From a virus (Duplodnaviria; Heunggongvirae; Uroviricota; Caudoviricetes), in IMG/VR virus record IMGVR_UViG_2619619132_000004: 19,407 nt of DNA. One strand, given 5' to 3'. The translations under genes and the position numbers were made by a program. Below the pieces are notes generated by a model that did no database searches, had not been told where the DNA came from, and saw nothing but the letters and a program-made list of their open reading frames with translations. Shown here piece after piece: positions 10,845 to 19,108 of this stretch; position 1 is the first letter of the stretch; each line of letters opens with the position of its first letter.

Positions 10845-10984
10845 ATTCATTACGATATGGGAATTCCCATATCGGGTAAAAACGGTTTGCGGTAAAGCGA
10901 GAGTTAAGCAGAATTGCTGCGGGTGCTTGAGGCTGTCTGCCTCGGGCATGCCACCGTAAGGCAGACAGAGAAAAACCCCAGTTA

Positions 10985-11050
10985 ACATTACGCGTCCTGC
11001 AAGACGCCTAACATTAATCTGAGGCCAATTTCATGCTAGACACATGTAGG
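10985..11050 (-). ncRNA. Sok-like antisense RNA (type I antitoxin); approximate position
   Basis: Placed by analogy with hok/sok loci, antisense to the mok start and hok leader. Boundaries not determined from sequence. Confidence 0.35.
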
Positions 11051-11245
11051 TTAGCCTCTTACGCGCCGAAAGGCAAGGAGAAGCAGGCTATGAAGCAGCA
11101 AAAGGCGATGTTAGTCGCCCTGATCGTCATCTGTATTACCGTCGTAGTGACGGCACTGGTAACGAGGAAAGACCTCTGCGAGGTACGAATCCGAACCGGT
11201 CAGACGGAGGTTGCTGTCTTCACAGCTTACAAACCTGAGGAGTAA
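11033..11245 (+). CDS. mok-like overlapping reading frame (in frame with and containing hok)
   Basis: ORF track 11033..11245 begins upstream of hok in the same frame, as in hok/sok loci. Confidence 0.5.
   Translation: MLDTCRLASYAPKGKEKQAMKQQKAMLVALIVICITVVVTALVTRKDLCEVRIRTGQTEVAVFTAYKPEE
11090..11245 (+). CDS. hok: Hok/Gef-family type I toxin (51 aa)
   Basis: MKQQKAMLVALIVICITVVVTALVTRKDLCEVRIRTGQTEVAVFTAYKPEE matches Hok (transmembrane helix then RKxLCEVRIxxGxTEVAAF). Leader 10921..10968 resembles the R1 hok mRNA 5' end; the 5' element UGCGGGUG (10918..10925) is complementary to the 3' element CACCCGCA (11303..11310). Confidence 0.85.
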   Translation: MKQQKAMLVALIVICITVVVTALVTRKDLCEVRIRTGQTEVAVFTAYKPEE

Positions 11246-12973: not shown

Positions 12974-13056
12974 ACGCCAGCAAAATCTGGCGTCGGGATT
13001 AGGAACCCCGGATAGAAACCGCGACAGAGACACGCCGCGAGCGTGTTTTTTATTGT
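12974..13056 (+). ncRNA. Candidate small RNA or attenuated leader (about 80 nt) ending at an intrinsic terminator
   Basis: No ORF; 5' hairpin CGCCAG-CAAAAT-CTGGCG (12973..12990); terminator ACACGC-CGCGA-GCGTGT then U6 (13030..13051); downstream of the promoter at 12938. Confidence 0.4.
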
Positions 13057-13214
13057 CGTATGCACACGCACATCTGAATTATGGTGGGGCGTATAGGGGA
13101 GCTGAAAAGCTCGCCGGTTGGTTTCCCGGTAGTTCCTAACCCTGTACGTCTCGCCACCCGATGATTAGGAACCTGACGGTGGTGATAGTTTAGAAACCAC
13201 TCGAGGGCGTCATT

Positions 13215-15779: not shown

Positions 15780-15818
15780 CAGGAGGCGTTTGCCGTTCAC
15801 TATGTGAAGTGTGTCAAT

Positions 15819-15848
15819 TTGTGAGCGTTATGCTGTTTACTTTATAGT
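15819..15848 (+). promoter_or_regulatory. Candidate late promoter PR' (TTGTGA, 17-18 bp spacer, TATAGT)
   Basis: Sigma70-like hexamers at canonical spacing about 40 bp downstream of the Q stop. A qut site is not identifiable by eye. Confidence 0.35.
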
Positions 15849-15910
15849 ACAGGGACGTAAGAGTTATCTACCTGTTAATAACATATATACAACAATGAAC
15901 AGGGGGCAAA

Positions 15911-16570
15911 ATGGACATTGAAGATTTTCTGGAGGCGGAAGACAATGATCTGTCTCTGTGGAATGATGATATTTTAAGCATTGACTGGTTCGTTATCCTC
16001 AAAGAGCTTTTGAAATACCAGAACAGGTTAAAGTTAAACTATTCAGAATTACTTCTGCTGGCTAATTTTGTTTCATTTCACCAGGACGTAGATTCGCAAA
16101 CATTACCATCAATATCTCTTTTTGCCACCAGAATGCGTGCATCTCGTGCCATTATAGAAGAAGGCTTTCAACGCCTGGAGGAGAAAGGGATGTTGCAGAA
16201 GATAAGTTATGCTCAAATCGGTCATGATTATGATTTGCGGAACGTTTATGACATCAAGCCATTAATTCGTAAGTTAATTGAGGTGCTGAAAACCGAGTAT
16301 GATAAAAAGCACACTTGCCCCCTCTGCGGCAAAATAGCTGTCTCTGATGAGGAAATTGAGAAAAAATTCGGATTCAGAATTTGCGGGAATAAGAAAAGGC
16401 CGCAAAGCTGGTGCCGTTCATGCAGAAGCACGAAACAACGCAGACTGAATTCATCGCTAATTGGCAAAAAAAGCCCCGAAAATCTCCGCCCGAGGTGGTG
16501 TGAAGCGTCGCGGAACCCCGGATTCCACTCACGATTGAACGAGGTGCTAAAAAGTATTTTACGTACGTAA
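15911..16570 (+). CDS. Hypothetical zinc-ribbon protein (219 aa; CPLCGK...CRSCRS), moron downstream of Q
   Basis: GGGGG RBS 5 nt before ATG; AT-rich composition unlike the flanking phage genes; own terminator 45 bp downstream. Confidence 0.5.
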   Translation: MDIEDFLEAEDNDLSLWNDDILSIDWFVILKELLKYQNRLKLNYSELLLLANFVSFHQDVDSQTLPSISLFATRMRASRAIIEEGFQRLEEKGMLQKISYAQIGHDYDLRNVYDIKPLIRKLIEVLKTEYDKKHTCPLCGKIAVSDEEIEKKFGFRICGNKKRPQSWCRSCRSTKQRRLNSSLIGKKSPENLRPRWCEASRNPGFHSRLNEVLKSILRT

Positions 16571-16615
16571 AAATCTGCATATCATGATAAGAGTGGTTAC
16601 ATTGCCACGCTGCTT

Positions 16616-16641
16616 AACCCGCCGATGCGCGGGTTTTTTTG
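16616..16641 (+). terminator. Rho-independent terminator (AACCCGC-CGAUG-CGCGGGUU then U7)
   Basis: GC-rich stem and T-run after the 219 aa ORF; may serve as tR'. Confidence 0.75.
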
Positions 16642-16820
16642 TACCCAGAATCCTGTGAGCTATACGGAAAGTACACAGAAAGGAAGGTACGACCGCAATT
16701 AATAACAAAATCTTAAAAATCTCATATGGCACTATTAGTTTTCTAAATATTGTATATTTTAAGTATTGCAGGATAACCCTGTAACGAAGTTTGCGTAACA
16801 GCATTTTGCTCTACGAGTTT

Positions 16821-16851
16821 GCCAGCCTCCCCTGGTGGCTGGCTTTTTTTG
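16821..16851 (+). terminator. Rho-independent terminator (GCCAGCC...GGCUGGC then U7)
   Basis: 7 bp GC stem and T-run in non-coding DNA about 180 bp after the previous terminator. Confidence 0.7.
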
Positions 16852-17114
16852 TATCCGTTCAACGGGAATGTTACATACCTCACAATTAAGTCAGTTGAAT
16901 GTTGTCTGCCCGGATGAGAATTTGTTAGAAAAAACTGCATGGTGAATCCCCCTGAGCGGAGGGGCGACTGGTGACGGTATAATCTCTGATTATCAAAACG
17001 AGAATGACGCGGGTTTAGTGGCACCGGGCTGAACTCACCGGGAGGCACCCGGCACCATGCAATGGCACATAGCGCCACTCTCCAGCCCCTCTCCGGAGGG
17101 GCTTTCTTATGGAC

Positions 17115-17143
17115 AAAAAAGCCCGCGCTGGGAGACGCGGGCG
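17115..17143 (-). terminator. Rho-independent terminator on the minus strand (GCCCGCG...CGCGGGC then U6)
   Basis: Reverse complement shows a 7 bp GC stem followed by TTTTTT; candidate promoter TTGCGC-18-TATTAT lies upstream on the minus strand (about 17190..17225). Confidence 0.55.
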
Positions 17144-17335
17144 GCAAGGAATAAACAATGAAACGTGAAGTAATATTTCAGCTGGCGAATAATACCCCAT
17201 AGTAATCACTCTGCGCAACTGCGCGACCTTTTTCGAATTGCGGGCTGTAGTCTCCCTTCTGCCATTGTCCTGTAACTTCCGGACTTCAGCCCGCTCCTTA
17301 TTTTACTCACAATATTATCCCGGCCGGGAGGATTC

Positions 17336-19108
17336 ATGGCATTTAAACACTATGATGTTGTCAGGGCGGCGTCGCCGTCAGACCTTGCGAAACGAATAAC
17401 TCAAAAACTGAAGGAAGGGGGGCAGCCTTATGGTAGTGCGCTGATTTCGACAGCTGGTTATGGTGCGGAGTTCATCCAGCCAGTTGTGAGTGAGGGGAGC
17501 ATCTCATCACCAGAGGAGCCAGGCAACCGTCCGACGACCTCAGCGCCTTCTGTTGCGCCAGAATATTACTATGTGATCGCGCTTGCTGGTCAGTCCAATG
17601 GTATGTCATACGGTGAGGGACTGCCATTACCGGATACATTCGACAGCCCTGATCCACGTATTAAACAGTTAGCGCGTCGCAGTACGGTGACACCGGGCGG
17701 TGCAGCATGCAAATATAACGACATCATTCCGGCGGACCATTGTCTGCATGATGTGCAGGACATGAGCCGTCTTAACCATCCGAAAGCGGACCTGTCAAAG
17801 GGGCAGTACGGAACCGTGGGGCAGGGGCTGCATATCGCCAAAAAACTGCTGCCGTTTATACCGGCGAATGCGGGCATTCTGCTGGTTCCGTGCTGTCGTG
17901 GTGGTTCAGCGTTCACCACCGGAGCTGATGGCACATACAGTGACGCGAGTGGCGCCTCGGAGAATTCAACCCGCTGGGGTGTGGACAAGCCGCTGTATAA
18001 GGACCTTATCGGTCGAACAAAAGCGGCACTGGAGAAGAACCCGAAAAATGTGCTGTTTGCCGTGGTGTGGATGCAGGGGGAATTTGATTTTGGCGGTACG
18101 CCGGCAAATCATGCCGCACAGTTTGGTGCGCTGGTTGATAAATTCCGTGCAGACCTGGCGGATATGGCAGGCCAGTGCGTCGGTGGCTCTGCTGGCGGTG
18201 TTCCCTGGATATGCGGGGACACGACGTATTTCTGGAAGCAGAAGAACGAATCCACGTACCAGACGGTGTACGGCAGCTATAAAAATAAAACGGAAAAGAA
18301 TATCCATTTCGTACCGTTCATGACCGATGAGAACGGGGTGAATGTGCCGACGAACAAACCGGAAGAAGACCCGGACATTCCGGGTATCGGTTATTACGGT
18401 TCGAAATGGCGTGACAGCTCAGCCACCTGGACGTCACAGGACAGGGCGAGCCATTTCAGTTCATGGGCTCGCCGTGGGATTATTTCCGACCGTCTGGCAA
18501 CGGCGATTCTGAGCTGCGCGGGTAAGTCTTCTGCGTTTGTTAATGGTACTGCCGGGGTGGTTGTTCCAGACAGACCGGTTACCACCTCAGAGTCTGTAAT
18601 TTTTTACGATGCCAAAAAAGCTACAGACAATCAGCTGAAACCCTATGGCTGGGACGGTGTGTATGGCAGGCGCACACTGGTTGATGACAGCGGCAATAAA
18701 GCTCTGCGAATTGAGAAAAATAACAGCGCGAAATCCTGGTCAATGTACTGTGATATTGCTGCAGACAAGGCAAAACTTTTACTGGAAAAAGGCGGGGAAA
18801 TTGCTGTCCGGTTTAAAATCCCCGAAAACGTCAATCTTGAGACAACCAGAAACAAGTATGCCTTTGGTTTGTACTGGCGAATAGCGGAATGGCCGGGTGA
18901 GGGTGGTGAAGGCCATCTGAGTTCTTTCTTTGTCCAGACAGATAAAGCCAGTATTAATGTTGCATACCATCATACAGTTAATCAACAAAAAGAACTTGGC
19001 ACGTTTGGCGCATTCGACCATGACTGGCATACGCTTGCATTTAAATTTAAGGGCAGTAACAGCATTAATGAACCGCCCCGGGTTTCCTGGAGAGTGTTTT
19101 ATCTGTGA
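17336..19108 (+). CDS. NanS-p-like SGNH/SASA-family sialate O-acetylesterase, 3'-truncated by IS insertion
   Basis: GGGAGG RBS; GQSN motif (IALAGQSNGMSYGEG) typical of SASA/SGNH esterases; position downstream of Q as for nanS-p in Stx-type prophages. The last 13 codons and the stop lie inside the IS that begins at 19069. Confidence 0.65.
   Translation: MAFKHYDVVRAASPSDLAKRITQKLKEGGQPYGSALISTAGYGAEFIQPVVSEGSISSPEEPGNRPTTSAPSVAPEYYYVIALAGQSNGMSYGEGLPLPDTFDSPDPRIKQLARRSTVTPGGAACKYNDIIPADHCLHDVQDMSRLNHPKADLSKGQYGTVGQGLHIAKKLLPFIPANAGILLVPCCRGGSAFTTGADGTYSDASGASENSTRWGVDKPLYKDLIGRTKAALEKNPKNVLFAVVWMQGEFDFGGTPANHAAQFGALVDKFRADLADMAGQCVGGSAGGVPWICGDTTYFWKQKNESTYQTVYGSYKNKTEKNIHFVPFMTDENGVNVPTNKPEEDPDIPGIGYYGSKWRDSSATWTSQDRASHFSSWARRGIISDRLATAILSCAGKSSAFVNGTAGVVVPDRPVTTSESVIFYDAKKATDNQLKPYGWDGVYGRRTLVDDSGNKALRIEKNNSAKSWSMYCDIAADKAKLLLEKGGEIAVRFKIPENVNLETTRNKYAFGLYWRIAEWPGEGGEGHLSSFFVQTDKASINVAYHHTVNQQKELGTFGAFDHDWHTLAFKFKGSNSINEPPRVSWRVFYL

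Follow-up and report, generated by a model that had tools for sequence, protein, structure and literature searches.

Positions 16642-17335 of the 19,407-nucleotide stretch of Caudoviricetes DNA analysed here (IMG/VR virus record IMGVR_UViG_2619619132_000004; "the window" is this whole stretch) are very probably the cargo-less moron site of a lambdoid late operon, carrying a second terminator for the late promoter PR', a small RNA (sRNA) gene of the STnc100 family on the plus strand, and a convergent sRNA gene on the minus strand. An earlier note, made from the letters alone, had suspected that one or more sRNAs were hidden in this interval. There is one on each strand, and both belong to families for which Hfq crosslinking and analysis of cDNA (CRAC), Northern or interacting-RNA ligation and sequencing (RIL-seq) evidence has been published in near-identical prophage copies. 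Homology, coordinates, conservation and covariation were established in this analysis, and transcription, Hfq binding and interaction partners are taken from the literature on those copies. The cargo-less slot would thus hold three units, namely the PR' terminator, the STnc100 RNA and a minus-strand RNA whose terminator would abut that of STnc100:

16821-16850, plus strand: second PR' intrinsic terminator, GCCAGCC...GGCTGGC followed by T7 (terminator scan, fold)
16851-16867: empty moron slot (alignment with phi296; annotation of phi296, 933W and VT1-Sakai)
16909-17114, plus strand: STnc100 (RF02076) sRNA gene of the EcOnc05/EcOnc27/sRNA103 type, PasD-related (Rfam)
17113-17183, minus strand: convergent Hfq-type sRNA of the EcOnc08/EcOnc42 family, short form of ~70 nt (terminator; fold z = -3.3)

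The plus-strand gene came from the covariance-model scan that the earlier note had proposed. Rfam returned STnc100 with a score of 165.1 bits and an E of 9e-38 (the gathering score is 47), over model positions 1-206 of 206 and without truncation, and the alignment contained few non-canonical pairs. The minimum free energy fold had a z of -2.9 compared with shuffles and recovered helices P1, P2, P5 and P6, and the terminator scan found an intrinsic terminator at the end of the gene. Its parts are the following:

16902-16931, plus strand: candidate promoter TTGTCT, 18 nt, TAGAAA, with a predicted start at ~16937
16881-16886, plus strand: alternative -10, CACAAT, with a start near 16893
16937-17060, plus strand: conserved 5' domain (Rfam structure line, RNAalifold)
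17061-17083, plus strand: C/U-rich linker
17084-17103, plus strand: terminator hairpin, 8 bp and G+C-rich, followed by the tail UUUCUUAUGG / TTCTTATGG

The 3' half of this gene is identical to the Sakai Sp4 copy, for which an Hfq-CRAC peak, EcOnc05, and a Northern signal of ~222 nt were reported (Tree et al. 2014, Table S2); the peak maps onto window positions 16985-17093 (plus strand). In 933W, the STnc100 gene lies 75 nt after stxB2 and is EcOnc27/sRNA103, an Hfq-bound RNA. Eleven STnc100 copies are transcribed in EDL933 according to RNA-seq, one of which, STnc100_4, was confirmed by Northern. The family was linked by the 2026 Pas/STnc100 preprint to PasD1 and PasD2, sRNAs of enteropathogenic E. 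coli (EPEC), and RIL-seq showed PasD members to be abundant Hfq-bound RNAs with trans partners. By analogy with the homologues and their CRAC peaks and Northerns, the STnc100 gene in the window would be transcribed as a discrete, Hfq-associated RNA. The gene would use its own promoter and produce an RNA of ~175-220 nt ending at the hairpin at 17084-17103, and the C/U-rich linker before the terminator would be the likely base-pairing region. The domain occurs in 338 phage records and in ~110 loci of other Enterobacteriaceae, and STnc100, to which no function has been assigned, ranks with the bacterial sRNAs that are annotated most often.

The earlier note had instead drawn a transcript from a perfect TATAAT at 16978-16983 to a hairpin at 17086-17105. 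The hairpin is real, although it sits at 17084-17103, and the hexamer is present as described, but its role as the promoter of that transcript is not supported. It failed the promoter scan, is absent from 933W, Sp4 and Sp15, and falls in the variable hairpin of STnc100. As an sRNA promoter the TATAAT was rejected because it has no -35, is not conserved, and predicts an RNA of ~125 nt, shorter than those reported for the homologues.

On the minus strand, the promoter-like TTGCGC-18-TATTAT that the earlier note saw feeding a terminator proved to be a convergent sRNA unit, with these elements:

17189-17218, minus strand: short-form promoter TTGCGC, 18 nt, TATTAT (-35, reverse complement of 17213-18; -10, reverse complement of 17189-94; direct reading)
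17143-17149, minus strand (reverse complement): seed CCUUGCC; the body of the RNA is G/U-rich
17142-17121, minus strand: terminator stem, with the U-run U6 at 17120-17115
17184-17342, minus strand: upstream part of a longer transcript, antisense to the 5' untranslated region (UTR) of the esterase gene
17342-17314, minus strand: candidate long-form promoter ATGCCA, 17 nt, GATAAT (promoter scan)

Window positions 17020-17345 share ~95% identity with Sakai Sp4 and Sp15, and positions 17100-17345 share ~96% with Sp4, Sp15 and EPEC PP6. The minus-strand Hfq peaks EcOnc08 and EcOnc21 (EcOnc42 in Sp15) map onto 17116-17188 and ~17194-17279, respectively. An RNA of ~271 nt was detected by Northern for EcOnc08/21/42 (Tree et al. 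Table S2). The published probe has the plus-strand sequence found at window positions 17187-17221, and therefore the RNA detected is of the minus strand. The STnc100 match ends at 17114 and the U-run of the minus terminator occupies 17115-17120, the same geometry as in 933W. The element was found in 987 of 5426 E. coli genomes. The sRNA units of the interval are 93-100% conserved in hundreds of genomes, both with and without cargo.

In EPEC, RIL-seq listed E2348C_1409.E2348C_1408.IGR as an sRNA and found 10 partners for it; this RNA of 182 nt was explicitly equated with EcOnc08/21/42. Its coordinates, 1444797-1444978 (Table S6), were mapped to the window via the EPEC PP6 stretch (L007), and the 182-nt form starts at ~17295. 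The chimeras include the 5' UTRs of cfa (767) and dppA (197) as well as emrA, tir and espC, with the target motif GGCAAGG. The CCUUGCC at 17149-17143 is the exact complement of this motif and abuts the 5' side of the terminator stem, and the cfa 5' UTR contains CGGCAAGGG. The minus-strand RNA would act in trans and in an Hfq-dependent manner, with CCUUGCC pairing to GGCAAGG-type sites in host mRNAs. A short form of ~70 nt would start from TTGCGC-18-TATTAT near 17183, and a long form of ~180-270 nt near the esterase start codon. Judging by the chimera counts of the homologue, the regulation may reach cfa, dppA and the other partners. In the PP6 prophage of EPEC E2348/69 (L007 612-1985), the STnc100 domain has lost its 5' part to an ISEc13 insertion; the minus-strand sRNA is intact there and was detected by RIL-seq.

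Several observations weigh against the assignment of two sRNA genes and a terminator to this interval. RefSeq annotates nothing between Q and the esterase. On the plus strand, the U-tract of the STnc100 terminator is poor (UUUCUUAUGG), the promoter in E. coli copies is weak by consensus (8/12 matches), and the sizes reported for homologous RNAs by Northern range from 172 to 247 nt with no agreement on one start site. For STnc100 of the EcOnc05 type, no target is known. On the minus strand, the sRNA belongs to a family with no curated Rfam model. The AsxR and AgvB models gave no match in 16400-17500 even at E <= 10, while 933W scores 88 bits, and AsxR/AgvB membership was ruled out on this ground. 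RNAduplex energies with the leaders of cfa and dppA did not improve on those of shuffled sRNA, in a method that allows large loops and says little here; consequently, the seed argument rests on the published motif and the exact complementarity. Expression in this prophage, the exact 5' ends and the targets of the STnc100 copy are inferences.

The 781 bases around the interval are 100% identical to E. coli O10:H32 NMBU-W12E19 and 99.2% identical to O104:H4 outbreak strains and others, and the window is an E. coli lambdoid prophage. RefSeq places antiterminator Q (144 aa, ~16136-16570) on one side and a SASA-family carbohydrate esterase (from 17336) on the other, with a blank in between, so the interval is the start of the late operon, with the moron slot downstream of PR'. 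A Pfam search of the 144-aa Q protein gave no match. In the mechanical list of open reading frames (ORFs), Q is 219 aa long (15911-16570) owing to an upstream ATG, and the start used in RefSeq and 933W gives 144 aa. The surrounding features are these:

16558-16585, plus strand: PR' late promoter, TTTACG, 16 nt, TATCAT (promoter scan)
16616-16635, plus strand: stem of tR', the first terminator, with a T-run to ~16642 (terminator scan)
16643-16820: AT-rich spacer between the PR' terminators, conserved, ~180 nt
17212-17235, plus strand: small hairpin TGCGC AACT GCGCG followed by a T-run (dG -7 kcal/mol, z = -2.3)
17336-19108, plus strand: esterase gene, nanS-p-type, DUF1737 + SASA + DUF6645 (Pfam)

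From the -35 hexamer through tR' (~16558-16642) the window is identical to VT1-Sakai and near-identical to 933W, where pR', qut and a terminator are annotated. The consensus terminator and promoter scan covered 15800-17800, where 8 terminator-like sites were found compared with 1.6 +/- 1.2 in shuffles. The strong terminators that the earlier note had reported on both strands held up and are among these eight sites, the plus-strand one with its stem at 16821-16843 and a T-run to 16850, and the minus-strand one with its stem at 17142-17121 followed by TTTTTT. The homologue of 16821-16850 is annotated in VT1-Sakai as a 'rho-independent terminator' for the pR' transcript, and in 933W as a terminator 'upstream of tRNA genes'. 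Together with tR', the second terminator would bar the constitutive PR' transcript from the late region until Q modifies RNA polymerase. In an alignment that includes the spacer at 16643-16820, the column identity to 933W and VT1-Sakai averages 95%. All Rfam matches in the spacer were sub-threshold, and Tree et al. Table S2 assigns no Hfq peak to it. An sRNA ending at the second terminator (16760-16851) was considered and dismissed, since good folding and sub-threshold look-alikes of RprA, Qrr, DsrA and VqmR were found there but no published Hfq peak.

The small hairpin at 17212-17235 is conserved in 933W, Sp4 and Sp15, where its stem is longer, and it overlaps the -35 of the minus-strand sRNA promoter. 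It could be a candidate plus-strand terminator stopping read-through before the esterase, or a mere promoter element.

The earlier note had located the interval where Shiga toxin (Stx) phages carry tRNA and toxin genes, and this was correct. Comparison with the Q to stx interval of such phages gave a layout that matches 933W and VT1-Sakai, with the cassette missing. In relatives such as phi296, Lahn2 and Nil3, the positions corresponding to window 16851 and 16867 are separated by ~456 bp that hold three tRNA genes and a methylase remnant, and by annotation 933W and VT1-Sakai also carry stx2AB or stx1AB at that slot. The tRNA genes of the slot in Stx phages are ileZ-argN-argO; the cassette is present in phi296 and 933W and deleted in the window. 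That no tRNA cloverleaf could be seen by eye agrees with ARAGORN, which found none in the whole window, and with Rfam, which found none either. The gap-free, cargo-less layout of the window is present in only 63 of 5426 complete E. coli genomes.

Such a deletion raises the question of whether the interval is an inert scar of lost tRNA and stx cargo, with hairpins and promoters that no longer have a function. The missing cassette and the RefSeq blank would fit this explanation, as would the state of the esterase, a hint of decay. The esterase ORF has 590 aa compared with 636 aa for the FORC_069 protein, with 99% identity over 581 aa before the frames diverge (~residue 579), and it is truncated in the window. 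Nevertheless, the sRNA units are intact and full length relative to Rfam, their 93-100% conservation in hundreds of genomes is independent of cargo, the STnc100 helices are kept by compensatory changes across genera, and the homologues are expressed in cargo-bearing and cargo-free prophages alike. We regard the inert scar as very unlikely. As a separate observation, W29 of DUF1737, otherwise conserved, is a G in the esterase of the window.

The compensatory changes were found in the 5' domain of STnc100, whose structure in the window is as follows:

16937-44 with 17053-60, plus strand: helix P1
within 16948-64, plus strand: helix P2
16964-66 with 17008-10, plus strand: helix P3, 3 bp
16975-17006, plus strand: variable hairpin, which holds the TATAAT
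17011-19 with 17028-36, plus strand: helix P5
17038-52, plus strand: helix P6
16968-73 with 17022-27, plus strand: loop-loop pseudoknot, CUGGUG with CACCGG, in which the stretch that follows P2 pairs with the loop of P5

RNAalifold applied to 28 diverse members kept 23 pairs, 9 of them with compensatory changes, and supported P1, P2, P3, P5 and P6. The pseudoknot was judged by permuting loops among sequences; column-based pair counts were not used, as MAFFT loses the register of both strands. Over 93 distinct combinations the best matched helix had a mean of 5.8, compared with 4.08 +/- 0.10 (maximum 4.38) in 200 loop permutations, and across loci the strands show many wholly different pair types. 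No pseudoknot is mentioned in the Rfam structure line or in the 2026 Pas/STnc100 preprint, and this covariation-supported pseudoknot is the one point that is possibly new.

The distribution of the domain was surveyed through its 22-nt core, which was found in 110 stretches from many enterobacterial genera; Rfam scores there were 48-102 bits, chiefly over model positions 31-147. A sigma-70 promoter (at least 9/12) ends 3-10 nt before P1 in 22 of the 110 distinct upstream regions, with a sharp peak at 6 nt, and almost no promoter signal was found elsewhere in these 110 regions. Outside E. coli, in many Enterobacteriaceae, the domain thus appears to form the very 5' end of an RNA. Among the loci with a near-consensus sigma-70 promoter ~35 nt upstream of the domain, ending ~6 nt before P1, are L012, L020, L073, L094, L100 and L113. 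In contrast to this strong promoter of other genera, the E. coli lambdoid copies have a weak equivalent (TTGTCT-18-TAGAAA). At the surveyed loci, the domain is followed by a variable linker and terminator, some of them tandem, or by an ORF. These ORFs encode a KdgM-family porin (18 loci), a DUF1737-SASA esterase (10), holins, Rha, Ivy, a TolA-like protein or a lipoprotein. The upstream ORFs, examined in a crude survey that asked if Q always precedes STnc100, were heterogeneous. At L033 6323-7018, L029 3389-3890, L111 3936-4623 and L079, among others, two or three STnc100-type units stand in tandem, and every unit has a linker and a terminator of its own.</replace><replace>

This architecture makes it necessary to consider that STnc100 is mainly a cis-acting leader, i.e., a pseudoknotted aptamer for a ligand or protein, or a put-like element, through which read-through into the esterase would be controlled at 17084-17103, the sRNA being the aborted leader. 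The domain resembles a riboswitch in its closing helix, its junction of several helices, its loop-loop pseudoknot and its near-invariant unpaired nucleotides, and in other genera the domain starts at the transcript 5' end. Moreover, at L012, L015, L040 and L057 no terminator was found and the domain leads straight into a ribosome-binding site (RBS) and an ATG, and a KdgM porin gene comes next in 18 loci. On the other hand, the genes that come after it are of many kinds (holins, Rha, Ivy, lipoproteins, esterase, porin), linker and terminator vary freely, and a conserved alternative pairing with the 3' strand of P1 was not seen. In the window, a convergent sRNA gene with a strong terminator intervenes before the esterase. 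There was no Rfam riboswitch model match, and the family consists of abundant Hfq-bound RNAs with trans partners, as the PasD RIL-seq showed. A mainly cis-acting role is therefore unlikely, although of the alternatives weighed in this work it is the one that we would take most seriously.

KdgM-family porin genes of Kosakonia, Klebsiella, Enterobacter, Raoultella and Citrobacter are preceded, at a distance of 65-220 nt, by an STnc100-type domain (loci L013, L024, L026-L028, L034, L036, L041, L050, L062, L070, L075-L077, L083 and L103). The gap often shows no obvious terminator, and the domain may be a 5' UTR element of these kdgM-type genes. We also entertain, with considerable doubt, that the domain is an autonomous RNA module carried by moron cassettes, which would bind a protein or small molecule or stabilise the transcript. 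Just as tentatively, a closed multi-helix junction of ~120 nt held by a loop-loop pseudoknot would set it apart from a seed-type Hfq sRNA, as would its place at the extreme 5' end of the transcript in over 100 loci from many enterobacterial genera. The Stx2a_EC3283 copy combines a 933W-type STnc100 5' domain with the linker, terminator and minus-strand sRNA of the window type, and the switch takes place at the invariant core CACCGGGAGGCACCCGGCACCAUGCA. It follows from this junction that the seed/terminator part and the convergent sRNA travel as a cassette apart from the 5' domain. The position of the switch (window 17036-17062 in the comparison with L004 and L005) suggests that sRNA cassettes recombine at the invariant core.

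The impression of the earlier note that no ORF was convincing was borne out. The ORFs of the interval have no Pfam match, and their PHROG matches are only to ORFs called in near-identical phages, in families with no assigned function. If the minus-strand ORFs at 16559-16804 (81 aa), 16743-17147 (134 aa) and 17015-17218 (67 aa) encoded small proteins, the PHANOTATE calls in phi296 and PHROG E values down to 1e-50 would be accounted for. However, these frames cross PR', tR', STnc100 and two terminators on the antisense strand. The 81-aa ORF was searched by tblastn against the phage collection, and only Stx-type phage copies were found, with 80-94% amino acid identity compared with 95% DNA identity; amino acid identity that is no better than DNA identity gives no sign of coding constraint. 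Coding by the minus-strand ORFs was rejected in view of the lack of Pfam matches, the function-less PHROGs and, for the one ORF searched, the near-identical copies, and we consider that it has practically no chance of being correct.

The 14-codon mini-ORF that the earlier note described at 17158-17202 (plus strand) is also present, although most likely it is not a gene, nor did the proposed leader peptide stand. Control of the esterase by attenuation through such a peptide would be in keeping with an ATG placed 8 nt after AAGGA and with the small hairpin and T-run at 17212-17235 after the stop codon. Yet the ATG reads ACA in Sakai Sp4, Sp15 and EPEC PP6 (three of the five homologues compared), the segment is replaced in 933W by unrelated sequence (AsxR), and all of these keep the esterase. 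At 17146-17150 the 'RBS' coincides in part with the seed of the minus-strand sRNA as read on the opposite strand, there is no regulatory codon run, and the hairpin is weak at -7 kcal/mol. With a start codon that is not conserved and an 'RBS' that is the reversed seed, a leader-peptide mechanism is unlikely. The leader-peptide attenuator was rejected because of the unconserved start codon and the replacement in 933W, and attenuation of the esterase in this way retains only the faintest probability. Of the Rfam cis-regulatory and riboswitch models, Trp_leader and others fell far below their gathering scores (E of ~0.1 or more) in the interval, where STnc100 was the only significant match. In sum, the earlier observation was confirmed and its interpretation was partly supported (sRNAs yes, leader peptide no).

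By strong homology the region is real and, as read from its relatives, functional, yet it is not new, being a known sRNA pair and a second PR' terminator. For annotation, this means that a segment left blank by RefSeq in thousands of E. coli genomes consists of two sRNA genes and a late-operon terminator, and that ORF callers add spurious hypothetical proteins to it. Although it has no toxin, this prophage brings along the sRNA pair by which stx is flanked in Shiga toxin phages. For the minus-strand sRNA family, contacts have been published with mRNAs of the host (cfa, dppA) and of virulence factors (tir, espC), and cargo-free lambdoid prophages may still rewire host post-transcriptional regulation. 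The pseudoknotted 5' domain of STnc100 is a concrete and testable structural hypothesis.

Other RNA elements were found elsewhere in the window. A sok antitoxin RNA of a hok/sok-type toxin-antitoxin locus is located at 10921-11095 (Rfam, 110 bits), and isrK (69 bits) and C4 antisense RNA (66 bits) are adjacent at 12974-13161 on the plus strand (Rfam). Both isrK and C4 belong to the regulatory RNAs of P1/P4 and Gifsy-like elements that act in immunity or are of the anti-Q type. An ALIL pseudoknot at 128-244 on the minus strand (116 bits) is the frameshift signal of a transposase of the IS3 family and indicates an insertion sequence at the left end of the window.

Compared with known systems, the PR' region of the window follows the lambda-type PR'-tR' module of 933W and VT1-Sakai, with Q, PR', tR' and the second terminator arranged alike. 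In contrast to the module of Stx phages, it has no tRNA genes and no stx, and only the second terminator falls inside the interval. The PR'-tR' segment, just upstream of the interval, is identical from the -35 hexamer through tR' to the VT1-Sakai region that yields StxS, a short leader RNA of the lambda-6S type. StxS has been described (PMC7873438) and is an rpoS activator in enterohemorrhagic E. coli (EHEC). A StxS-like RNA is probably made from this stx-less prophage too.

The plus-strand gene resembles STnc100/EcOnc05/EcOnc27/sRNA103 in lying between PR' (or a cargo gene) and a DUF1737-SASA esterase, in the orientation of late transcription. It differs from known STnc100 in its central hairpin at 16975-17006, a lineage-specific variant in which TATAAT occurs by chance. 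Its linker and terminator are of the Sp4/Sp15 type, unlike the 933W (EcOnc27) type, and PasD, with 172 nt and the seed UGUGAG, has a 3' region different from that of the STnc100 gene in the window.

On the minus strand, the closest known system is EcOnc08/21/42, or E2348C_1409.E2348C_1408.IGR, which has the same strand, terminator, CCUUGCC seed and STnc100-convergent layout as the window. The window differs by a few substitutions in the 5' body (UUUCAUUG for UUUUGUUG), one of which makes the ATG of the mini-ORF. The length of the transcript also differs, being ~70 nt as predicted from the proximal promoter, 182 nt by RNA-seq in EPEC and ~271 nt by Northern in EHEC. Convergent sRNA pairs occur 3' of PR' in eight Sakai prophages (Tree et al. 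2014), and AsxR/AgvB (RF02703/RF02702), likewise short and Hfq-dependent, occupy the same slot, immediately 3' of and antisense to STnc100, with the -35 TTGCGC, an 18-nt spacer and a GCCCG...CGGGC U6 terminator. In 933W, TTGCGC stands 18 nt upstream of TAAAAT before the Rfam-defined 5' end of AsxR, and the primary 5' end of AsxR was mapped by RNA ligase-mediated rapid amplification of 5' cDNA ends (5' RLM-RACE; Tree et al.). However, the ~42-nt conserved 3' body of AsxR/AgvB/EcOnc03, shared by EcOnc01, EcOnc02 and EcOnc03, is missing from the window, and by alignment nothing but the promoter and the terminator base is common. Unlike AsxR and AgvB, which are anti-sRNAs, the homologue of the minus-strand sRNA has mRNA 5' UTRs and not core sRNAs as its published partners, and it therefore resembles an ordinary seed sRNA more than a sponge.

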